Source: Candidatus Promineifilaceae bacterium (GTDB lineage Bacteria > Chloroflexota > Anaerolineae > Promineifilales > Promineifilaceae). From it: a stretch of 64,000 nucleotides of DNA. Location of the stretch: assembly GCA_049614105.1 (NCBI GenBank), contig JBMZDF010000001.1, forward strand, positions 24,338 to 88,337, given 5' to 3'. The notes below the pieces were generated by a model. The model was not told the origin of the DNA. It saw only the letters and a list, made by a program, of their open reading frames with translations, and did not search any database. Positions 230 to 9,500 of the stretch are shown here, in pieces; position 1 is the stretch's first letter, and the number at the start of each line of letters is the position of its first letter. The translations under genes and the position numbers were made by a program.

Positions 230-3200
230 ATGAAACTACCTTTTTCACTCTTATTTACCATTATGATGTTTGGCGTTTCAGTGTTGCGGGTTTCTGCATC
301 TTCTGGTTCGGATGATACATTCTATGTTGATAGTACCGTTGATGCAGTTGATATAAATATTGGTGATGGTGTGTGTGCATCATCAACAGGTGCATGTACA
401 TTACGTGCGGCTGTCCAAGAAAGTAATGCGTTGTCAGGTATAAACACGATTAGTCTTCCAGAAAATAAATACGTACTGTCTTTGAGTGGGGGGAATGAGG
501 ATTCATCGGCGTCGGGTGATTTAGACATCAGAGATGCATTGATTATCATAAACCCTACGCCAGAGATTGGCGCTAAAATAGAAGCAAGAGGTGATCGCGT
601 CTTTCATATTCATACAGGAGCAACTTTAACGGGATCATGGTTGGTGCTGGCAGGTGGTTTTGCGCAAAATGGGGGAAATATATTTGTTGAGAATGGGGGG
701 GAGGTTACGCTAAACCATACGCTTATTCGTTCTGGGTATGCGACAGACTATGGAGGAGGAGTTTATAGTCATGGTACGGTAAATTTACATAATTCTGGTG
801 TAGATGATAACTGGTCGTCTGGGCAGGGCGGGGGAATCTGGATTTCTTCTAACGGGCGTCTTGGTCTCGTTGGGACCAGAGTTGAGGGCAATCAGGCAGG
901 CAGCGGAGGGGCTGGGATTGCAAGTAGTGGTGTTGTAACAATTACACATAGTCGTATCGAGAACAATAAAACAAATATTGCCGATACATCACCTGATAAC
1001 GTCAGCCGTGTACATATGGGGGCAGGTATTTATAACAATGGGGAGATGACGATAGGAAACACCACGATCGCTTCAAATAAAACAAATGCGGGCGGCGGCG
1101 GTATTTTTAATACCGGTCATACAAATGGTGCTGAACTAAAAATTTATAACAGCACAATTTATGATAATGAAGCTATTGCGGGCGGTGGGTTGCTTAATAA
1201 TGCTCCAGCCACATTAATCAATACAACTATCAGCGATAATCGTGCCATTTTTGGGGAGACTAATTGGTCTCCTTATGTTGACAATCTTAAAGCCAGATAT
1301 CCTTTGTATATTGGTTTGATTAACTCGGTTGATCCACAGCCAGAGGATGTGCTGGGCGGCGGCGGTATTTTACACTATGCTGAAACAGATAAACTGTTGC
1401 GTCTGATTAATGTCACACTAAGCCATAATGAAACAGATTTATCTGGCGGAGGGCTACGAATTGTTGCAGGTGATGTGAGTAGTGTGAACACAATTATAGC
1501 CAAAAATAGGCCCAATAACTGTTATTATGGCTTCCCATCCGAAGAAAAATGGAACCCAATCAGGGCTATACAGAGCCTATATGGGGCTAGTATCAATTTT
1601 CGATCAGATGGTTACAATCTGGAAGATAGCAATATCTGTGAGTTGACAGGTATCGCAGATCGGGTTAACGCATCACCGTTGCTTGGCCCACTGGAAGATA
1701 ATGGCGGTGTTAGCTGGACGCGGGCGCTTTCTGTCACAAGTGCGGCCATAGACAATGGTGTGTCGATTGCGGCAGAAACCGAAACGGATCAACGTGGTAT
1801 TTCTCGGCCGCAAGGCGGCGCTTGGGATATTGGTGCGTATGAGTTAATTCCTCCAACGGTAGTTGCACCCTCTAATAAGGCGGAGGGCGTACTTGTTCTC
1901 TATGCATTCTCGCTCGATGGGGTCGTGCAAGATAACCACAATCTGACGGGGATGTTTCGGCCGATTATCAACACCCTAGAAACAACAACACGCGGGATGA
2001 CCCAAACACAGGTTGTCGCCCTAGTTGATTTAACAGGTGCTGACAACACATTCATCTTAACAGCTCAGAATGGTGTAGTCAGTCGGATTGACGGGCTGCC
2101 AGATGCAGCAGGCCAATTACAAACGCACCTAACCGAATACAATATGACCGATCCCCAGAGCTTGGGGGCCTTTATCAGTTGGGCACGCCATGCATACCCC
2201 CTACGCCAAACAACATTCTCATTTGTGGGACATGGGTCTTATGCTGTGCCAGATGTCCCAGACTCACCTTCAGCAAGAACAAGCCACGTTGTAAACTCAA
2301 ATCCTGTTGTGCCAGCGCCAGTCAATTGGCCGTTGCCAACCCTGCCTACATTTTGGGTGCTGCCCACGTTTTGGGTGCTGCCCACGTTTTGGGTCTTAAC
2401 GAATGTAACCGATGCGTACCCACAGCCTAGTATTATCTCGCCATATGACATCTCGGAAGCATTGCGAATCGGGACAAACGACGGGGCCGACCCGATTGAC
2501 GTACTCGACCTATACCACTGCTTTTCAGCATCGTTAGAAGAATTATATGAAGTATCAAACCCTAACGATCCGGAACGCCCTTATGCTCACAAGTTTCTCG
2601 CATCCCCCAGTTATGTTTATCTGGATGCGTCACTAATTGGCAACGCGCTGGCAACCTTACGGCCTCAAGCGAGTGCCGAGGCTTTGGGTAGAGGGATGAT
2701 AGATGGGTATGAGGATGCGTTGACAGCAGCAGAAGCAGATGGCCCCAGCGAACATCCGCGCAAAACTATTATGGTGGACAGCTTAAAAATCGCGGAGCTT
2801 AAGCCTGCTTTGGATGCACTCTCACAAAAAATTCTTGAAGAGGACGAACCAGATACGTTAATAGCAGCCTACACTAATGCTAAACGCTATGATACAGATT
2901 TCCAGTGCGGTATTCATGAATGGGAACTCAATGCAGACGACCCGTTTATTGACCTTCACAGTTTTACTGTCGAACTTGCCAATCGTTATGGGGACGCAAC
3001 CCCCGTTGGTATTAAAGCCAATACGCTTGCAATTAAGATCAGTAATGCTGTTGAATATAGCCGTACCGTTCATGGAACGCCGTGGTTTGCGGATGAATCA
3101 TCTGAGTGGCAATTAGATGGGATGGGGATTGCATTATGGGCTGATTTAAATGGTCGTGCATGTAATGGAGGCACCGCTTTAAGCTGGCAGGCAGCTTACT

Positions 3201-4531
3201 ACACTGACACAGTTTCGGTTGTTCAATTTGGCGACAACCCTCACCCCTTTAGCTTGCTTAAAGGTGGTGGCTGGTCAGATGTAGTGCATAAGAGTTGGGA
3301 AACGGAGATCACAACGCTTATTACACCAACAGTCAACATGCCAGCTTTAGTGACCCTGCCTGTCACCGTTGAGGCAGGGTTGAGTGAGATTGTCTTGCCA
3401 CGTACTGGTTCGCTCAGCGTCGACACCCCTGTCCCAATGGGGGTTGTTATCTCGGCCACTTCTATTGTCGAGAACCCCCGTGTGAATTTTGAGGTGCAGG
3501 CAGCGAATGGCGATACAGTTTTCCGCACACAGATAAACGCAGGTTACTTAGTGACAGGCACACATCCTATCTATATTGCCTCAGCCCCAGAGGCGAATTT
3601 ATGGATACCACAGCAAAACGGGCATTACACCTTAACTGTGACGCTTGACCCCGATCATTATCTTGTTGAGACAGACAGAACGGACAACGTACTTGTACAA
3701 CGATATGTGGTTGAGGGTCAGGGAAGTACGACTAAATTCTCTGTTTCCTTGAGAGATAACAAGGTTTGGTTTGATTCATCAACGCTGGAGCTAATATTGA
3801 ACAGTCAGGATACGCTCGGGATGGCATTTGTGGAGGTTTATCACTATCCAGCGGCAGGAGAAACAACTCACAAACCAGCTCTTTTAACGACGGATACACT
3901 TAATTTGAGCAACCCGATTTTGACACTACCTGCGGAATTGTTGGCTCGGGGGCGTGTGGAGCTATTTGTATGGGGTTGGGCAAACAATGGTGACTTTATC
4001 CCGCAGCCAGCTCGTTTGTCTTTGAGCTATGTGCCAGAGTCGTTAACGTTGGGCGCGAATGAGAGCCACTTTTTCTACTATAACCATCGTGCGGTGGATG
4101 GGACGACTTTAGCTTGGACATTGAACGAGTTGGCGGATTCGGCCGAAATGTTCATTTTTGAACCATACAATCATTGGCAGTCGCTGTATTCGGCCGATAA
4201 CACTATCACCGTGTCCCCCGCTCTCTCTGGAAACTATCTTGTTGAAATCCGCGCGGGCGAAAACGGGGCAACCTACTCTCTTAGTAACCAAGTTAGCCGC
4301 AGAGCGGCCGAGGCAACAACAACCCGCGTTACTCGTCCGCGCCCTAACCAGCTTCAACCCGTACCCGTGCCGCCGAAAAGCCCTGGGGTGTCCGCCATTA
4401 CAATCGCACAACATGAAGTTTCATCGCCTGTATACCCCATTGGTTTGATTATGTTCCTCGTACTTTCAACCGCGTGGGTTCTGCTCTGGCATACACATCG
4501 CGCCATTTTTCATCAGCGCACAAATAGATAG
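230..4531 (+). CDS. Giant secreted, C-terminally anchored protein with a parallel beta-helix N-terminal half and a clostripain (C11)-like region
   Basis: The ORF is 1433 aa. The N-terminus MKLPFSLLFTIMMFGVSVLRVSASS looks like a signal peptide. GACTLRAAVQESNA resembles the CSLREA motif. Gly/Asn-rich beta-helix turns repeat through the N-terminal half, which ends in DQRGISRPQGGAWDIGAYE. FVGHGSY and LDLYHCFSAS resemble a clan CD His/Cys dyad. The C-terminal hydrophobic helix is VYPIGLIMFLVLSTAWVLLW. Confidence 0.7.
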   Translation: MKLPFSLLFTIMMFGVSVLRVSASSGSDDTFYVDSTVDAVDINIGDGVCASSTGACTLRAAVQESNALSGINTISLPENKYVLSLSGGNEDSSASGDLDIRDALIIINPTPEIGAKIEARGDRVFHIHTGATLTGSWLVLAGGFAQNGGNIFVENGGEVTLNHTLIRSGYATDYGGGVYSHGTVNLHNSGVDDNWSSGQGGGIWISSNGRLGLVGTRVEGNQAGSGGAGIASSGVVTITHSRIENNKTNIADTSPDNVSRVHMGAGIYNNGEMTIGNTTIASNKTNAGGGGIFNTGHTNGAELKIYNSTIYDNEAIAGGGLLNNAPATLINTTISDNRAIFGETNWSPYVDNLKARYPLYIGLINSVDPQPEDVLGGGGILHYAETDKLLRLINVTLSHNETDLSGGGLRIVAGDVSSVNTIIAKNRPNNCYYGFPSEEKWNPIRAIQSLYGASINFRSDGYNLEDSNICELTGIADRVNASPLLGPLEDNGGVSWTRALSVTSAAIDNGVSIAAETETDQRGISRPQGGAWDIGAYELIPPTVVAPSNKAEGVLVLYAFSLDGVVQDNHNLTGMFRPIINTLETTTRGMTQTQVVALVDLTGADNTFILTAQNGVVSRIDGLPDAAGQLQTHLTEYNMTDPQSLGAFISWARHAYPLRQTTFSFVGHGSYAVPDVPDSPSARTSHVVNSNPVVPAPVNWPLPTLPTFWVLPTFWVLPTFWVLTNVTDAYPQPSIISPYDISEALRIGTNDGADPIDVLDLYHCFSASLEELYEVSNPNDPERPYAHKFLASPSYVYLDASLIGNALATLRPQASAEALGRGMIDGYEDALTAAEADGPSEHPRKTIMVDSLKIAELKPALDALSQKILEEDEPDTLIAAYTNAKRYDTDFQCGIHEWELNADDPFIDLHSFTVELANRYGDATPVGIKANTLAIKISNAVEYSRTVHGTPWFADESSEWQLDGMGIALWADLNGRACNGGTALSWQAAYYTDTVSVVQFGDNPHPFSLLKGGGWSDVVHKSWETEITTLITPTVNMPALVTLPVTVEAGLSEIVLPRTGSLSVDTPVPMGVVISATSIVENPRVNFEVQAANGDTVFRTQINAGYLVTGTHPIYIASAPEANLWIPQQNGHYTLTVTLDPDHYLVETDRTDNVLVQRYVVEGQGSTTKFSVSLRDNKVWFDSSTLELILNSQDTLGMAFVEVYHYPAAGETTHKPALLTTDTLNLSNPILTLPAELLARGRVELFVWGWANNGDFIPQPARLSLSYVPESLTLGANESHFFYYNHRAVDGTTLAWTLNELADSAEMFIFEPYNHWQSLYSADNTITVSPALSGNYLVEIRAGENGATYSLSNQVSRRAAEATTTRVTRPRPNQLQPVPVPPKSPGVSAITIAQHEVSSPVYPIGLIMFLVLSTAWVLLWHTHRAIFHQRTNR
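2342..2395 (+). repeat. Three tandem 18-bp units encoding (L)PTFWV x3 inside the giant ORF
   Basis: The DNA reads ctgcctacattttgggtg / ctgcccacgttttgggtg / ctgcccacgttttgggtc, and the protein reads LPTFWVLPTFWVLPTFWVL. Confidence 0.9.
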
Positions 4532-4560: not shown

Positions 4561-6021
4561 ATGATAAAGTTGCCGTTTTCAAGAATTAGCTTGTTTGTAG
4601 TCTTCCTGTCGCTATTTATCTACTCAAATGCGTATGCACAGGCAACAGGTGGCTCTCTAATCCACAGCATAGAGTCTGGCGGAACCGCAAGAGGGCATCT
4701 TAATCAGAGCAAGACGCCACTTATTAATTCGAGGTCGCTTAGTACGCTGCCTCGTACACTTTTCAACAATATCACCATTATAGACAACGGCATCACGCTC
4801 AATTGCCAAAATGAGATGTTGTGCTTCAGTATTGGAATTGGTGATGCGGAACAGATTGATCGGCTTGTGATAAGGGTGGACGATTCAGGGGGAATGAGTG
4901 TCACCGATAGGTCTATCAACAATCCCAAAAATTCTGAAACCGTGACTTTTAACCTTGCAAACTTTATACCAGAAGAAACTTATTCTTTTCAAGTGTATGC
5001 GCTCAATCGAAATAACGAATATATCGTTCCAGAGGGCGAAAATAGCGAAGTCTTGTTGACTAAATCGTTCACTATGCCTGCGGTGCGCGTATCTACGTTT
5101 GAGTCTAAAATTGAGACGGTTAATGTAGAGTATGAATCGATGCGCTTTATCATTGATCTAGCATTGCCAAGCGGCAACAAGATTCAACTATACTCAGGCC
5201 AGATTGTCGAAAATGATTCGGGTCGTAGTGTTCATAAGTTTGAAAGTAACGTTTTCAATGGGGATACAATCATCACGCAGCTTCCGCAAGAACTGCGTAC
5301 ACCTGAAGCCAAATATGATTATACGCTTGAATTAATATTAGAAATATCGGATGAGAATGACAACTGGTCTAAATCCGAAGTTTCCCGCGAGTTCTCTCCT
5401 AATCTACCTGTTGCCCCTAGCTTTATACAGACGTTGATCTCGCGCTTGGGTAGCAGTCCTGTTTTTTTGTTTGCGATTATGACGGTTGCACTCTCTATCC
5501 CTATCCTTATCATACGTCGCAGGCGTCAGGCAAAAGCGGCAGAAGTTAAAGTAAAACGCCCCCCTGTAGATAATTACACCATACTGGCTGAAGATTTGGT
5601 TTTTCCGCCAGTGACACGTGAAAGTAACGCAGGCGAGGTGGGTAATCTGGGGCGAGCTCCTGAGGGGCGGCTGCAACAGACCTTATTACACTCACAGAAT
5701 CGGGTTACACAACAGATTCAACCAATCCAGGTACGGGTGTTTCGTATGCCCAAAAATGAGATTGTTCATGAGTGGCGTGTTTCATCGTTGCCAGCGACTT
5801 TGGGACGTGCGAATTGTGATTTGGTAATTCGAGGGGACAATCATATTTCACGCCTTCACATTGAGATCGGCCGAGAAGATAACGCTATTTATGTTAAAGA
5901 TTTAAACAGCAAGGTGGGCGTACGAATCAATAAGCGACGTTTGCCCGTTGGGGTTAATGTAACGATTCGGCCGAAAACACAGATCCAGCTAAGTTCCAAA
6001 ACAACCATCGAGCTGATGTAA
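4561..6021 (+). CDS. Single-pass membrane protein with an extracytoplasmic N-terminal region and a cytoplasmic C-terminal FHA domain
   Basis: There is a signal-like N-terminus and a TM segment VFLFAIMTVALSIPILIIRRRRQ. The C-terminus LGRANCDLVIRGDNHISRLHIEIGREDNAIYVKDLNSKVGVRIN matches the FHA G-R...S-R-x-H...D-L-x-S-x-x-G pattern. Confidence 0.75.
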   Translation: MIKLPFSRISLFVVFLSLFIYSNAYAQATGGSLIHSIESGGTARGHLNQSKTPLINSRSLSTLPRTLFNNITIIDNGITLNCQNEMLCFSIGIGDAEQIDRLVIRVDDSGGMSVTDRSINNPKNSETVTFNLANFIPEETYSFQVYALNRNNEYIVPEGENSEVLLTKSFTMPAVRVSTFESKIETVNVEYESMRFIIDLALPSGNKIQLYSGQIVENDSGRSVHKFESNVFNGDTIITQLPQELRTPEAKYDYTLELILEISDENDNWSKSEVSREFSPNLPVAPSFIQTLISRLGSSPVFLFAIMTVALSIPILIIRRRRQAKAAEVKVKRPPVDNYTILAEDLVFPPVTRESNAGEVGNLGRAPEGRLQQTLLHSQNRVTQQIQPIQVRVFRMPKNEIVHEWRVSSLPATLGRANCDLVIRGDNHISRLHIEIGREDNAIYVKDLNSKVGVRINKRRLPVGVNVTIRPKTQIQLSSKTTIELM

Positions 6022-6309
6022 CAAACGGTGATATTCGGCCGAAATCAAAGCCATCATGAAAGCTATGTAAAAGAGCGTTTACATAACCTATGTGAGGTGG
6101 ATCACATCCGCCAAAATAATTTAGGCGGTTAGTCCAAATAACCTTTGAACTGCACGGCGCTTTATTATAGTAGAGACCTTGATTTTATTCGGGGCGTGCC
6201 CTAGACGAAAACCGCAGAGGTTTGTTGTCATCTACTCTGGTTTGTGCATAAAAACCTCTGAGGTTTATTGACTTAGCAAAAAAGCTTAATAGATTGTTAT
6301 AATTGTTAT

Positions 6310-6546
6310 ATGGAACATAGTCAGCTTATAAATGATGATAAAGAACGGCTAATCTCACTTGCTGAAGCGGCAGGTAAATATGGCTTGACCCAACGATATT
6401 TGAGCAAGTTAGCCAAAAAAGGACGCTTGCAAGCTCAAAAGTATGGGCCGATTTGGCTTACTACCCCAAAAGACGTTGAAATCTATATTGCTAGCCGTCA
6501 AAAACGTGGTGTATATCGTGAAGATATTGATGTCACCAATTTTTGA
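6310..6546 (+). CDS. Excisionase/MerR-type HTH protein, paralog 1 of 5
   Basis: It starts MEHSQL, and RLISLAEAAGKYGLTQRYLSKLAKKGRLQAQKYGPIWLTTPKDVEIYI fits the HTH_17-like pattern (EAA..G......L...G.L.....G..W). The other four copies align over their full length. Confidence 0.8.
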   Translation: MEHSQLINDDKERLISLAEAAGKYGLTQRYLSKLAKKGRLQAQKYGPIWLTTPKDVEIYIASRQKRGVYREDIDVTNF

Positions 6547-6572
6547 CAAATGGCCTTTTATGTAGCTATAAT
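6543..6572 (+). promoter_or_regulatory. Near-consensus sigma-70 promoter (TTGACA-18-TATAAT) overlapping the stop codon of paralog 1
   Basis: ttgaca lies at 6543-6548 and tataat at 6567-6572. A conserved leader (agaaatcaaagcgcaaattgcgaagatag) follows and runs into the ATG at 6617. Confidence 0.55.
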
Positions 6573-6616
6573 TGCAGAAATCAAAGCGCAAATTGCGAAG
6601 ATAGTTTAATTATTGT

Positions 6617-6853
6617 ATGGAACACAATCAAACTGCGAGTGATAATAAAAGACGGTTGATTTCTTTGCCTGAAGCGGCTGAGCTTTATGGTTTCCATTCC
6701 GAGTATTTAAGTACACTAGTACGGAAAGGACGGCTAGACGGTCTGAAAGTTGGAGGGCGTTGGATTACAACCCCACAGGATGTAGAAAATTTTATCCGCA
6801 GCCGACAAAAACGCGGTGTTTATCGTGCTGATATTCAATTGGATTGCGAATAA
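6617..6853 (+). CDS. Excisionase/MerR-type HTH protein, paralog 2 of 5
   Basis: MEHNQTASDNKRRLISLPEAAELYGF...GRWITTPQDVENFIRSRQKRGVYRADIQLD is colinear with the other copies. Confidence 0.8.
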   Translation: MEHNQTASDNKRRLISLPEAAELYGFHSEYLSTLVRKGRLDGLKVGGRWITTPQDVENFIRSRQKRGVYRADIQLDCE

Positions 6854-6872
6854 CTGTTGAATCAGTTATAAT
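6844..6872 (+). promoter_or_regulatory. Sigma-70-like promoter (TTGCGA-17-TATAAT) overlapping the end of paralog 2
   Basis: ttgcga lies at 6844-6849 and tataat at 6867-6872. Confidence 0.4.
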
Positions 6873-7041
6873 AGCCCAAGAATGCAACAGATAATAAACT
6901 GCAAAAAACGTATTCATTTCAAAGAAGCAAGAGAATAGCTTTTGCAGGTTGTTGCAATTGACGAGGCCAACCATCCAGATTTAGATTATATTTGGGTGAG
7001 AGAAATCAAAACGCAAATTGCGAAGATAGCATAATTATTGT

Positions 7042-7269
7042 ATGGAACACGATCAAATTGCGAGTGATAATAAAAGACGGTTGATTTCTTTGCCTGAAGC
7101 GGCCGAGCTTTATGGGTTTAATGCTGATTACTTACGCCATTTAGCACATAGAGGCCGCTTACAAGCTCAAAAAGTTGGTCGAAATTGGATCACAACACCA
7201 GCACAAGTTGAAAGCTATATTGCCAGCCGAAAAAAGATGGGTGTTTATCGTGGCGATATTCAACTTTGA
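7042..7269 (+). CDS. Excisionase/MerR-type HTH protein, paralog 3 of 5
   Basis: MEHDQIASDNKRRLISLPEAAELYGF...GRNWITTPAQVESYIASRKKMGVYRGDIQL aligns with the other copies. Confidence 0.8.
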   Translation: MEHDQIASDNKRRLISLPEAAELYGFNADYLRHLAHRGRLQAQKVGRNWITTPAQVESYIASRKKMGVYRGDIQL

Positions 7270-7295
7270 CAAATAATCCTTTACAGGACTATAAT
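7266..7295 (+). promoter_or_regulatory. Near-consensus sigma-70 promoter (TTGACA-18-TATAAT) overlapping the stop codon of paralog 3
   Basis: ttgaca lies at 7266-7271 and tataat at 7290-7295. Confidence 0.55.
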
Positions 7296-7361
7296 TGCAA
7301 CCATCAACTAGCCGCTGAGAGAAATCAAAGCGCAAATTACGAAGATAGCATAATTATTGTT

Positions 7362-7592
7362 ATGGAACACGATCAAGTTGCGAGTGATAGTAAAAAACGG
7401 TTGATTTCTTTGTCCGAAGCGGCAGAAATCTATGATTTCAATAACGATTATTTGGGTCAGCTTGCTAGACGAGGAAGACTTAAAGCTCAAAAAATCGGCA
7501 ATTCATGGGTGACAACCCCTAATTATGTTGAAGACTTCATTCGTAGTCGAAAACAAAAAGGATTGTTCCGAAAAGATATTCAGATCAGTTGA
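7362..7592 (+). CDS. Excisionase/MerR-type HTH protein, paralog 4 of 5
   Basis: The start is set at the internal MEHDQVASD (ATG 7362) by homology with the other four copies and the conserved leader upstream. The track ORF beginning at 7266 would read through the promoter and leader. Confidence 0.75.
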   Translation: MEHDQVASDSKKRLISLSEAAEIYDFNNDYLGQLARRGRLKAQKIGNSWVTTPNYVEDFIRSRKQKGLFRKDIQIS

Positions 7593-7618
7593 CGCGTGCT
7601 CGTTTGATCGAGTATAAT
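7589..7618 (+). promoter_or_regulatory. Sigma-70-like promoter (TTGACG-18-TATAAT) overlapping the stop codon of paralog 4 and driving repeat copy A
   Basis: ttgacg lies at 7589-7594 and tataat at 7613-7618. Confidence 0.5.
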
Positions 7619-7812
7619 GCGTGCAATCAAATAGTTGATTATGCAACAACAGTACAGTGCAACAACACTGCGCAGTTGCCTAACCCAAACCCTGCAAAGA
7701 CAGGCGGCGGACTGTGTTCAGCGTACTCAGGTAGCTAACTGACTTCAAGTCAAAAAGCAAATGAGAATGCAAATCCAGCCAATTTCAAGCGGTTGAAGTC
7801 ACAGACTTCTCT
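7611..7812 (+). repeat. Copy A of a duplicated ~202-nt element, a candidate structured leader RNA of paralog 5
   Basis: It aligns base-for-base with 8089-8290 apart from scattered substitutions. It contains the hairpins CAGTG-N6-CACTG and CCTG-N6-CAGG and the 9-bp stem TGACTTCAA(7740-7748)/TTGAAGTCA(7793-7801). Confidence 0.7.
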
Positions 7813-7843
7813 GCGCAAATTGCAAAGATAGTTTAATTATTGC

Positions 7844-8071
7844 ATGGAATACAAGAGTGTGAATGACAATAAAGGGCGGTTAATTTCGTTGCCTGTAGCC
7901 GCAGAGATTTACGACTTTAATCCTGCCTATCTGCGACAACTTGCATTAAGAGGCAGGTTGGATGCACAAAAAGTAGGTAATAGCTGGGTGACAACCCCTG
8001 CAAACATCGAATTGTTTATTCGTAGTCGAAAAAAGACAGGCGCATATCGAGAAGATATACAATTAGATTGA
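7844..8071 (+). CDS. Excisionase/MerR-type HTH protein, paralog 5 of 5
   Basis: MEYKSVNDNKGRLISLPVAAEIYDF...GNSWVTTPANIELFIRSRKKTGAYREDIQLD aligns with the other copies. Confidence 0.8.
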   Translation: MEYKSVNDNKGRLISLPVAAEIYDFNPAYLRQLALRGRLDAQKVGNSWVTTPANIELFIRSRKKTGAYREDIQLD

Positions 8072-8095
8072 CTTAGCTCTTTAGCGTAGTATAAT
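8068..8095 (+). promoter_or_regulatory. Sigma-70-like promoter (TTGACT-16-TATAAT) overlapping the stop codon of paralog 5 and driving repeat copy B
   Basis: ttgact lies at 8068-8073 and tataat at 8090-8095. Confidence 0.45.
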
Positions 8096-8290
8096 CATAG
8101 TAATTAAATAGTTTATTATGCAACAACAGCACAGTGCACAAACACTGCGCAGTTGCTTAACCCGGACCCTGAAAAAAGCAGGCGGCGGGCTGCGTTAAGT
8201 GTACTCAGGTAGCTAATTGACTTCAAGTCAAAAAGCAAATGAGAATACAAATCCAGCCAATTTCAAGCGGTTGAAGTCACAGACCTCTCT
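8089..8290 (+). ncRNA. Copy B of the duplicated ~202-nt element, a candidate stand-alone small RNA (promoter upstream, terminator downstream, no ORF)
   Basis: It has the same stems as copy A with variable loops (CAGTG-cacaaa-CACTG; CCTG-aaaaaag-CAGG; TGACTTCAA 8218-8226 / TTGAAGTCA 8271-8279). An intrinsic terminator follows at 8303-8342. Confidence 0.35.
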
Positions 8291-8302
8291 ACCTTACTTG
8301 TC

Positions 8303-8342
8303 AAAAAGCCGTTTTCACAGGAATGTGGGGGCGGCTTTTTTT
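8303..8342 (+). terminator. Rho-independent terminator-like hairpin with a T-run
   Basis: AAAAAGCCG (8303-8311) pairs with CGGCTTTTT (8332-8340), and a run of T residues follows to 8342. Confidence 0.55.
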
Positions 8343-8396
8343 GTTGTCAGAGTAGGCTAGTTGAGAAAAGGTTACAGTTCTAAATAAGTTTAATTA

Positions 8397-9500
8397 ATGG
8401 CACCTGTTGACAGTTCCCACAATCCCGCAGAGCAATCTGCTAGATTACAATTGCTCACCACAGCAAATGCACCATTGCATCTGTTGCGTGAGCCGTTTGC
8501 GCGAACCGAGACAGAAACACCGCCACCCCCTCCCCAACCAACATTTGAAGAAAAGCCGTCTGAATCTGATCCTGTTCCCCAACCGCCCCCAATCTTTGCC
8601 CCCAACTTCACCCTGTACACCAATGTAGCGCACGCTATTCTCAGGCACGAAGTGGCAGCGGCCGCCCGCGTTTGGCTGCTTTTGCGCTGCCTAGACCACG
8701 ACCGTTGTGGTTGGATCACAGTCGAGGAAGCACGCTATCACTTGACGAGCAAACAATCGCCGCACCGCGTTTTCGGGTGGCGACAGCTCCGCAACTTATT
8801 GAAAGCGGGTCAGGACACATTCTGGCAACGGGATAAACAACGCATCTGGCTGCGTTCAACGGCCAAAGTGGCTAAGAAACTGGAGGTTTCACGACTTCAT
8901 AAACAACCGATCGTCATTCCCACAAATATTTTATTTGGAAAAATCCAAGGAGTACGCGCCCAACTATTTGCGCTGATGCACCACGGTCGCGATGATCGCC
9001 CGATCAGCCGCGCCAAACTACAAGATATCACAAGCGTCAATGAACGCACCCAACGCCGCTATGATCATGCGGCGAAGATTAAAAAGAAAGCCAGCTATTG
9101 TATAGAGCTAGCTAGCAAAAAGTCGCAAGATGCGGCTTGGCATCATCGACATGCCGCATTCGACTTTACGGACAGGAAAGGCGAACACGGGGAAGCAGGT
9201 ACAAAATATTATGCTTACCAACTGCCTAACAGTTATTCAGTCAATTATCTGAGCGCCGCTAAAGGGCGCACACACAAAATCAACCAACAATTACGAGAAG
9301 ACCTTGTGAATAATAGGGCGCAGGGGAACAATCGTGATGAGGGTGAAAATGTGTGTGCGGTTGAGCGTGTTGAAGATCGGCCGAATTTCACACAACTGTT
9401 CTTCGAGGGTGGAAAAAAAGCTAGCAGAGCAAGAGGAGAACGTTATCTGAAAATAACGGATAAATCACGCCACTCTTTTTGGGTCCACATGACAGATTAA
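8397..9500 (+). CDS. Hypothetical protein with a Pro-rich N-terminus, a possible replication-initiator-like DNA-binding protein
   Basis: The ORF is 367 aa and matches no family I recognise. The Rep-like suggestion rests only on its position directly upstream of the iteron-like tandem repeats and on segments that look like a winged helix (ISRAKLQDITSVNERTQRRYDHAAK). Confidence 0.35.
   Translation: MAPVDSSHNPAEQSARLQLLTTANAPLHLLREPFARTETETPPPPPQPTFEEKPSESDPVPQPPPIFAPNFTLYTNVAHAILRHEVAAAARVWLLLRCLDHDRCGWITVEEARYHLTSKQSPHRVFGWRQLRNLLKAGQDTFWQRDKQRIWLRSTAKVAKKLEVSRLHKQPIVIPTNILFGKIQGVRAQLFALMHHGRDDRPISRAKLQDITSVNERTQRRYDHAAKIKKKASYCIELASKKSQDAAWHHRHAAFDFTDRKGEHGEAGTKYYAYQLPNSYSVNYLSAAKGRTHKINQQLREDLVNNRAQGNNRDEGENVCAVERVEDRPNFTQLFFEGGKKASRARGERYLKITDKSRHSFWVHMTD

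Follow-up and report, generated by a model that had tools for sequence, protein, structure and literature searches.

Probable tandem control modules of a Chloroflexota mobile element, with small HTH genes and a predicted antisense RNA

In the inc18 plasmids (pIP501, and also pAMbeta1 and pSM19035), the gene of a small DNA-binding protein, which in pIP501 is the Cro/cI-type helix–turn–helix (HTH) protein CopR, precedes a strong promoter, a leader of about 330 bp that contains a terminator, and the regulated gene. On the Enterococcus plasmid pCF10, the regulator gene prgX forms part of the antisense transcript, a peptide is encoded in the sense RNA and the system responds to peptide pheromones. 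The order in pIP501 is copR (92 amino acids (aa)), pII, a 329-bp leader and repR, and a convergent promoter inside the leader, placed face to face with the sense promoter so that transcriptional interference is possible, produces the 136-nt antisense RNAIII (PMC4981023); pCF10 prgQ/prgX has convergent overlapping promoters, an antisense RNA (Anti-Q) that acts on the sense leader, a terminator before the conjugation genes and an HTH regulator at the sense promoter (PMC3181467). Here we describe a locus of comparable layout in a stretch of 64,000 nucleotides (nt) from Candidatus Promineifilaceae bacterium (phylum Chloroflexota; hereafter the window, whose positions are used throughout), in which five genes for small HTH proteins (g1 to g5) lie in tandem. 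On the basis of comparison with ~40 Anaerolineae/Promineifilaceae loci from reference genomes and metagenomes (numbered L001 onwards), the array consists of tandem, partly truncated copies of the control module of a Chloroflexota mobile element. We think it probable, with some reserve, that it represents five diverged regulatory heads of an Anaerolineae/Promineifilaceae element that work in the way set out below.

In the module that we propose, the HTH gene would be transcribed from its own extended −10 element into a leaderless mRNA, and a consensus sigma-70 promoter whose −35 element contains the HTH stop codon (P_sense) would fire rightward. The ~95 bp between P_sense and a leftward promoter that faces it (P_anti) would also be transcribed leftward, giving a structured antisense RNA in which a helix P2 is followed by a 15-bp helix P1 and a conserved unpaired box; beyond would come one or two strong plus-strand terminators, a motif that we call box2 and then the genes of the element. 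This anatomy (that is, HTH gene, P_sense, antisense RNA, terminators and box2) is supported by sequence comparison. We suggest that transcripts from P_sense would have to pass the terminators to express the downstream genes, that the antisense RNA and convergent transcription would limit productive sense transcription, and that the HTH protein may adjust this balance through P_sense or the boxes.

The window thus shares with the inc18 plasmids the order of parts, the face-to-face promoters and a convergent promoter inside the leader for an antisense RNA of ~130 nt, which in the window is predicted. An HTH gene stands directly upstream of the leader promoter five times in the window and in all related loci, computation places an antisense RNA at a convergent promoter within the leader, and P_sense lies 329 bp (8068 to 8397) before the ATG of the first downstream gene, which encodes a 367-aa protein. 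The parts themselves differ, however. The window protein is of the MerR/Xis/BldC type (HTH_17) and CopR of another HTH type, with no homology found between the two; the RNAs are related neither in sequence nor through Rfam; the −35 of the window promoter contains the HTH stop codon; and the related elements, in the host phylum Chloroflexota, regulate transfer-type genes and the 367-aa protein, which is not a proven Rep, so that a replication initiator was not found as the regulated gene. Equilibrium folding also gave no terminator whose formation depended on antisense pairing. We regard the likeness to CopR/RNAIII/repR as one of analogy only, not homology. The convergent overlapping promoters recall pCF10 as well, and the window module differs from it in having no conserved open reading frame (ORF) in the sense leader. 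With elements of the actinomycete integrative and conjugative (AICE) type, the related loci share a translocase of the FtsK/SpoIIIE (TraB-like) type, a DUF2637 protein and small HTH regulators, all in one direction; here, by comparison, the hosts are Chloroflexota, neither a Rep nor an Int of any known family came to light and the window copy has no transfer genes. We know of no antisense-RNA control module described for AICEs. The ConAn conjugation operons of Gram-positive bacteria likewise place a small protein gene and then a large RNA element before a terminator-containing operon (PMC8191782), but conAn2 acts in the sense transcript, whereas the fold in the window is antisense, has its own predicted promoter and accompanies an unrelated protein. 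The regulatory logic is of a known type; the RNA family, the protein partner, the overlap of stop codon and −35, the host phylum and the five-fold array are new.

An earlier note on this DNA, made by a model from the sequence alone, had reported that the stop codon of all five HTH genes overlaps the −35 element of a strong promoter, and a consensus scan reproduces this for every copy, with the same hexamer variants (Table 1); 11 promoter-like sites are present in the region, compared with 6.3 ± 2.3 after shuffling. In all related loci that include downstream DNA, TTGAC contains the TGA stop, TATAAT follows 16–18 nt on, and a conserved non-coding element comes next. Given that the overlap is kept in relatives in which no HTH gene follows, it is a trait of the family, and the ancestral job of the promoter was not to express the next HTH gene; the logic implied by the earlier note, that the strong promoter serves the next HTH gene, fails in the ~40 related loci that have the promoter and no HTH gene after it. 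Across the family, sequence comparison supports a stop-overlapping promoter that would drive a non-coding control region of ~330 bp, which would also carry the antisense RNA gene. Between the −35 and −10 of P_sense, all loci have a hairpin of 5–8 bp (alignment A3, columns 13–28; 7600–7613 in the window) that covaries freely and is decayed after g1 and g5 in the window; it could be a 3′ hairpin of the HTH mRNA, a terminator of the antisense RNA or both.

A non-coding repeat of ~200 nt, absent from the earlier note, follows g4 and g5 (7611–7812 and 8088–8290; 84–92% identical). The evidence for the antisense RNA comes from a 30-copy alignment of the conserved element, in which covariation is strong: 93% of cells are paired, compared with 30–41% when the partner columns are slid, and changes on both sides occur in 143 cells against 43 in shuffles, none of 500 of which reaches the observed value. 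The pairs also identify the strand. Read on the plus strand, P1 contains 49 A.C or C.A oppositions and 2 G.U pairs, whereas on the minus strand the 49 become G.U wobbles and P1 runs for 15 continuous base pairs; the minus-strand fold is the more stable in 29 of the 30 sequences (consensus energy −40.9 kcal/mol versus −25.5 on the plus strand; P1 of copy B, −21.1 versus −13.4 kcal/mol). The terminator downstream shows the opposite bias, with U.G wobbles on the plus strand. Taken together, wobbles of P1 on the minus strand and of the terminator on the plus strand indicate that the two strands carry two different selected RNAs.

A predicted leftward promoter, with TAnnnT 5–7 nt before CAGCC, marks the right-hand edge of the structure at the same position in 33 of 33 loci. 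A −35 matching at least 4 of 6 positions (TTGAAA/G-type, spaced by 16–18 nt) is present in 21 of these loci and a TGn in 18, and each of the 33 has the −35, the TGn extended −10 or both, a compensation that is typical of real promoters. We read the conserved structure as an antisense RNA of ~80–130 nt, predicted to be made from the minus strand: it would start at CAGCC, continue through P2, P1 and a conserved unpaired stretch (GUUGCGUUU...GCUAUUYGRUU), and end either after P1 (~80 nt), which a terminator scan flagged as terminator-like, or at the covarying hairpin in the P_sense spacer (~130 nt). With a covariance model built from the family (R1), the element is recovered immediately behind the HTH stop codon in 42 related loci, of which 12 lay outside the model-building set, and the two complete copies in the window (A and B) are 88.7% identical. 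Rfam yielded zero matches at gathering thresholds in the whole window, and permissive scans of 6200–8400 and of L001 (6150–6700) returned only chance-level matches (expect value (E) ≥ 0.06). Matches to the RNA pattern in viral contigs and genomes (L050, L052 and L055) lacked the hairpin and were set aside as chance matches, as was the idea of a small conserved leader ORF of a type I toxin, for which an ATG occurs only in the window copies and the frames are not conserved.

The repeat had at first been read as a sense-strand small RNA (sRNA) made from P_sense, and this was dropped after the count of wobble pairs. In its fuller form, the functional RNA would be a sense sRNA of ~240 nt that ends at the terminator, with the minus-strand signal a by-product, and P_sense indeed comes close to a perfect consensus in every locus, and a strong terminator with plus-strand wobbles would end such a transcript. 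The pairing of box2 with its inverted counterpart at the 5′ end of the sense RNA, box1, points the same way, with 36 G.U against 10 A.C on the plus strand, although the scoring was biased towards G.U; the boxes may pair in the read-through RNA or may be two protein sites. We consider a sense sRNA very improbable, as the 49 A.C against 2 G.U of P1 on that strand is the reverse of what selection on a sense hairpin would leave and a leftward promoter sits exactly at the structure's edge in all 33 loci.

Table 1. Genes, predicted promoters, predicted RNAs and other elements of the array, in window coordinates
Feature	Position	Strand	Size	Description
g1	6310–6546	+	78 aa	HTH paralog; closest homologue P0016 (78% identical)
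P_sense copy 1	6543–6572	+		TTGACA-18-TATAAT, 12/12 consensus; g1 TGA stop inside −35
Leader before g2	6583–6616	+		inverted repeat CGCAAATTGCG at 6587–6597; TTTAAT 6605–6610, six nt before ATG
g2	6617–6853	+	78 aa	HTH paralog; closest homologues P0007 (82%) and P0006 (77%)
P_sense copy 2	6844–6872	+		TTGCGA-17-TATAAT, 10/12 consensus
Leader before g3	7008–7041	+		exact palindrome 7012–7022; CATAAT six nt before ATG
g3	7042–7269	+	75 aa	HTH paralog; closest homologue P0004 (86%)
P_sense copy 3	7266–7295	+		TTGACA-18-TATAAT, 12/12 consensus
Leader before g4	7327–7361	+		one-mismatch palindrome 7331–7341
g4	7362–7592	+	76 aa	HTH paralog; closest homologue P0010 (70%), on L048
P_sense copy 4	7589–7618	+		TTGACG-18-TATAAT, 11/12 consensus
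Antisense RNA copy A (predicted)	7589–7718	−		R1 103.5 bits, E 5e-24; P2, 15-bp P1, box1, P_sense-spacer hairpin
P_anti copy A	7720–7748	−		−35 TTGAAG (complement 7743–7748), 17 nt, −10 TACGCT (complement 7720–7725)
Leader before g5	7810–7843	+		one-mismatch palindrome 7814–7824
g5	7844–8071	+	75 aa	HTH paralog; nearest outside homologue 73%
P_sense copy 5	8068–8095	+		TTGACT-16-TATAAT, 11/12 consensus
Antisense RNA copy B (predicted)	8068–8196	−		R1 99.1 bits, E 7e-23; complete module
P_anti copy B	8198–8226	−		−35 TTGAAG (complement 8221–8226), 17 nt, −10 TACACT (complement 8198–8203)
Sense-leader intrinsic terminator	8303–8340	+		17-pair stem then T run; four U.G wobbles; not in the earlier note
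Box2	8355–8365	+		GGCTAGTTGAG; inverted copy of box1; family consensus GGGCTATYYGGTT
367-aa element protein gene	8397–9500	+	367 aa	first gene downstream of the control region

The sense terminator of the window folds with a pairing probability of 0.96 with or without the antisense-overlap region masked, and an attenuator of the pT181/pIP501 type was rejected as unsupported by folding in the window's clade. This independence of the antisense overlap means that read-through would need another factor, and one candidate is processive antitermination, in which the HTH protein would load on RNA polymerase at P_sense, as lambda Q or Pseudomonas aeruginosa AlpA do at sites within the −35/−10 spacer, or act with the leader RNA in the manner of ConAn1/conAn2 (PMC9371919, PMC7969949, PMC8191782). 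The layout would suit such a mechanism (a regulator gene upstream of a constitutive-looking promoter, a terminated transcript of ~200–260 nt, one or two terminators and a conjugation-type operon), and by eye, the stretch from the terminators to the first gene has no obvious sigma-70 promoter in L001, the one locus inspected for this. We nevertheless hold antitermination to be improbable: the element in the P_sense spacer is a freely covarying hairpin and not a conserved protein site, the selected RNA fold lies on the antisense strand and not in the sense leader, the window protein is unlike Q, P. aeruginosa AlpA (an eight-helix protein) and ConAn1, and by eye, neither the early part of the transcript nor box1 showed a conserved −10-like pause element. 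Throughout the family, box2 follows the terminators. Immediately beyond the sense terminator and box2, ~220–420 nt after P_sense, L003, L016, L019, L043/L044 and L048 have runs of an RGATGAA heptamer (iteron-like direct repeats), which are absent from the window.

The earlier note described g1 to g5 as five excisionase-type HTH paralogs of ~76–78 aa lying head to tail, and this description holds, with ORFs of 75–78 aa and a matching fold; a listed 108-aa ORF from 7266 is an upstream TTG extension of g4. The paralogs are 51–70% identical in pairs, with 32 invariant alignment columns, and all five match PF12728 (HTH_17), only g2 and g3 (30.6 and 28.5) above the gathering score of 27 (g4 26.4, g1 20.1, g5 18.8); their best score against the 'excisionase family' TIGR01764 is 23.4, below its cut-off of 28.8. 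Many close database homologues carry a precomputed PF12728 match. The AlphaFold2 model of g3 (mean predicted local distance difference test (pLDDT) 84) has a MerR-like winged-helix fold, with a helix–turn–helix, a two-strand wing and a C-terminal helix (helices 17–24, 28–36 and 53–66; strands 43–45 and 48–51), and Foldseek matched it to Pukovnik Xis, RdfS, BldC, TraN of pIP501 and NmlR at probabilities of 0.9–0.99. Agreement is closest with Pukovnik Xis (root-mean-square deviation 1.6 Å over 47 columns; target-normalised template modelling (TM) score 0.69–0.70) and BldC (TM score 0.68–0.77; 0.3–0.6 for the other targets). On the evidence of this model, the proteins are of the Xis/BldC-fold (MerR-like) DNA-binding type; a search of PDB sequences with the HTH profile gave chance matches only. 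The likeness to the excisionase/BldC/TraN group thus consists of the fold and the HTH_17/TIGR01764 profile matches, and the window family differs from that group in a conserved C-terminal tail (GxYRxDIQ), the last codons of which overlap the promoter, and in having no integrase partner near the array, among the genes scanned from 230 to 25406. The family counts 727 database proteins at E ≤ 0.001, and its named members are nearly all from Chloroflexota (Anaerolineae, Ardenticatenaceae and Promineifilaceae). Ratios of nonsynonymous to synonymous divergence (dN/dS) of 0.07–0.29 among g1 to g5, at saturated synonymous divergence (dS 0.7 to >5), support old paralogs under purifying selection.

Given this fold, the proteins could be true excisionases and the array the scar of related elements that integrated in tandem and lost their interiors, with the RNA module incidental. 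The match to Pukovnik Xis and RdfS, the sub-threshold TIGR01764 scores and the occurrence of the paralogs' closest relatives in separate elements from other metagenomes agree with this, and an 11-nt sequence, GAAATCAAAGC, might represent a recombination core: it occurs at 6041, 6577 and 7321, and the copy at 7002 differs by one mismatch. A scan of the window genes on either side of the array (230 to 25406) revealed no integrase domain, however, and no att-like direct repeats bracket it; the junction shared by g2 to g4 suits one deletion followed by duplication or conversion, and not separate integrations; and in every locus the HTH gene is invariably accompanied by P_sense and the antisense RNA, which points to regulation. 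We thus consider the excisionase explanation improbable. GAAATCAAAGC forms the first 11 nt of the g2/g4 leader, and its exact copy at 6041–6051, 20 nt after the stop of an FHA-domain gene, adjoins a local 18-nt repeat (5965–5982 and 6033–6050); this copy may mark the left end of the array or be a scar left by recombination. A 15-nt inverted repeat (6209–6223 and 6252–6266; 93% complementary, 28-nt loop) lies just upstream of the g1 promoter region.

The relatives also indicate how the HTH gene itself is expressed. TGnTATAAT stands six or seven nt before its ATG in L005, L007, L028, L043, L045 (as TATACT), L046, L048 and L056, L034 has TATAAT without the TG, and g1 of the window retains the extended −10 (TG 6295–6296, TATAAT 6298–6303, 6 nt to the ATG). 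An extended −10 at this distance from the start codon implies a leaderless HTH mRNA. At the same position g2 to g5 have agTTTAAT or agCATAAT, in which the TG is lost and the hexamer weakened, and they share a leader of 34 nt, within a 53-nt repeat family (D2; 75–91% identical), that contains the palindrome CGCAA-A-TTGCG; the earlier note had placed leader and palindrome correctly. The four palindromes are homologous copies of one leader and not independent occurrences. Leader and palindrome are absent from all related loci, and the leader has zero matches in 185,579 reference genomes. Since short matches (AAATCAAA...CGCAAnnTGCG...AAG) link the beginning of the leader to that of the control region, homology to the 5′ stub of the RNA region is likely, and the leader, specific to the window, is probably a control-region stub fused to a degraded copy of the gene's own −10. 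With the RNA region of modules 1 to 3 cut down to P_sense and a stub on the shared leader, each P_sense would now transcribe the HTH gene that follows, and the original −10 elements of g2 to g5 have decayed. The note had further remarked that g2 to g5 lack an obvious Shine–Dalgarno sequence; it is indeed absent, but this is no special feature, since most window genes also have none. Most long window ORFs have an A/T-rich sequence before the start codon instead, whereas several related loci show a clear GGAGG at the first gene downstream of the control region.

The same leader was central to the model of the earlier note, in which self-contained promoter–leader–HTH cassettes are repressed by the paralogs through the palindrome. 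It is at least 88% identical among g2 to g5 despite saturated synonymous sites, the palindrome occupies plausible operator positions (+9 to +19 of P_sense copy 1 and about −30 to −20 of the g2 ATG), and as RNA it would form only a 4-bp stem with a triloop, which makes a DNA site the more likely. Nevertheless, that the stop-overlapping promoter is conserved in ~40 loci with no HTH gene to follow, and that neither palindrome nor leader occurs in these loci or the reference genomes, speaks against the model; gene conversion would explain the identity of the leaders equally well, and Xis and BldC, the structural relatives matched by Foldseek, typically bind direct repeats, not palindromes. We therefore rate self-contained cassettes as rather unlikely to be the whole explanation; the model is compatible with our reading of mobile-element control modules, and may describe a secondary adaptation of the array.

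Full R1 matches in the window are confined to modules 4 and 5, on the minus strand. A degenerate match without P1 covers 6543–6639 on the minus strand (28 bits, E 4e-5), one at 7266–7321 (19.8 bits, E 0.005) retains only a box1 remnant (CCATCAACTAGCCGC, 7301–7315), and 6844–6905 scores E 3.9. The 148-nt spacer behind P_sense of module 2 contains a further, weak promoter-like site (6958–6987); a decayed RNA module in the g2–g3 spacer (6853–7000) was considered and dropped, as BLAST against the full module gave nothing significant and the covariance model E 3.9. By these sequence criteria, modules 4 and 5 appear intact, except that module 4 has no terminator and its sense leader would continue into g5; what is left of modules 1 and 3 is P_sense with a stub, and of module 2, P_sense with 148 nt that could not be related to the RNA. 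g1 to g4 are each closer to an outside homologue (Table 1) than to other members of the array, and the contigs of P0016, P0006, P0004 and P0010 are separate and each carry a full RNA module of their own, those with g1-, g3- and g4-like modules coming from the same sample. A 5′ tract (the leader and the first 90 nt) is 82–95% identical between g2 and g3 and 71–95% across g2 to g4, compared with 51–62% for the gene stretch that follows, which indicates gene conversion or constraint at the nucleotide level; conversion-like tracts, raised as a possibility in the earlier note, are thus present in g2, g3 and g4. Closer outside homologues, saturated dS and 5′ identity together suggest an array that is either old or put together from distinct modules, and whose 5′ ends were in part homogenised afterwards.

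A less biological origin would be a metagenome assembly that joined HTH genes of different loci or strains. Homologues typically lie on very short contigs, with assemblies that break at the module; the nearest protein to the 367-aa protein in an NCBI metagenome-assembled genome (94% identical) has the locus tag _00005, so that its contig apparently starts there; and cassettes 2 and 3 share an exact match of 45 nt and cassette 5 and the tail one of 37 nt. All other inter-cassette matches are of at most 21 nt, including those at the g1–g2, g3–g4 and g4–g5 junctions, for which reason a k-mer chimera was judged unlikely; moreover, paralogs that are 51–70% identical are not collapsed repeats, and two-copy tandem arrays arise independently in L028 and L034. 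An artefact of this kind seems to us a far-fetched explanation.

The HTH gene is single in 38 of the 41 loci that encode a relative, the others being tandem pairs in L028 and L034 and a divergent pair in L025; homologous arrays, which the earlier note had proposed to look for on other replicons, thus exist as two-gene tandems, but a five-gene array was not found among the 41 loci. Downstream, the relatives have one or two strong terminators, a GGGCTATYYGGTT box, an ORF of ~115 aa, a winged-helix DUF2637 protein and an FtsK/SpoIIIE protein of ~700 aa. A domain scan of L004, L014 and L018 found FtsK_SpoIIIE and DUF2637 in their proteins, and similar ORFs were seen in L001 and L015; in L048, P0010 and the RNA module are followed by a 359-aa gene at the place of the 367-aa gene (a comparison by position alone). 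The related loci are mobile elements of the FtsK/TraB type, and this context bears out the suggestion of the earlier note that the cassettes are repeatedly duplicated and derived from a mobile element. A literature search found no paper on FtsK/DUF2637 elements in Chloroflexi. In L034, a truncated HTH copy (TATAAT-N7-ATG, no TG), a zinc-ribbon-like small ORF and a (CAGTAAA)n heptamer run (922–1700) precede the intact HTH–RNA module. Homologues of the 367-aa protein occur in the same elements (L001, L004, L005, L007, L015, L018 and L019), and 228 were found at E ≤ 1e-5, all named ones being 'hypothetical'; none of the 120 listed has a Pfam domain, and the protein itself matched no Pfam or NCBIfam family and gave no significant match in a search of PDB folds. 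Its AlphaFold2 model (pLDDT 85) contains several winged-helix-like units and a beta domain, and may represent a new fold family of mobile-element proteins. Upstream of the array and unrelated to the element lie a secreted-looking protein of 1433 aa with a clostripain (C11) peptidase region (230–4531) and, directly before the array, a membrane protein of 486 aa with a C-terminal FHA domain (4561–6021).

Several points weigh against the reading of the array as five regulatory heads with the mechanism given above. The antisense RNA and P_anti are known here from sequence comparison, and P_sense, P_anti, both RNAs and all RNA ends are predictions. Folding revealed no antisense-dependent switch in the window leader, with a modest rise in 4 of 15 loci (L001, L004, L013 and L014), and the homology of leader and RNA-region stub is based on short matches and one covariance-model match of 28 bits. 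Excisionase activity or binding to direct repeats is common among proteins with this fold, and searches by family, name and fold could not show the 367-aa protein to be a replication protein. Transfer genes are missing from the window: FtsK_SpoIIIE and DUF2637 are absent from the genes scanned (230–25406), and the array and the 367-aa gene stand by themselves among ordinary chromosomal genes. The array may accordingly be a decaying remnant without current function, although dN/dS argues that the proteins are still selected.

A more speculative possibility, to which we give little weight, is that the array is a domesticated, multivalent immunity locus, in which a chromosomal relay of strong promoters would express five diverged repressor-type proteins and two antisense RNAs. 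That g1 to g4 are each closest to the regulator of a different element lineage from the same kind of community would fit this idea. If true, the locus would be a stacked repressor-plus-countertranscript defence that silences or excludes incoming conjugative elements of several incompatibility types.

In summary, comparison of the array with its relatives defines a predicted antisense RNA family that is present in no RNA database and is supported with unusual clarity by covariation, strand-specific wobbles and a promoter that alternates between a −35 and an extended −10. The end of the HTH gene is a compact example of how a stop codon can be built into a promoter −35, the five-fold array offers a natural series of intact and truncated modules for tests of how such a switch is rewired, and R1 can flag these elements in metagenomes, together with the assembly breaks that they cause. 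The RNA family heads FtsK/TraB-type elements of Chloroflexota, a phylum with almost unstudied mobile elements, in which the 'small repressor plus countertranscript' logic of Firmicutes plasmids appears to have arisen with unrelated parts.

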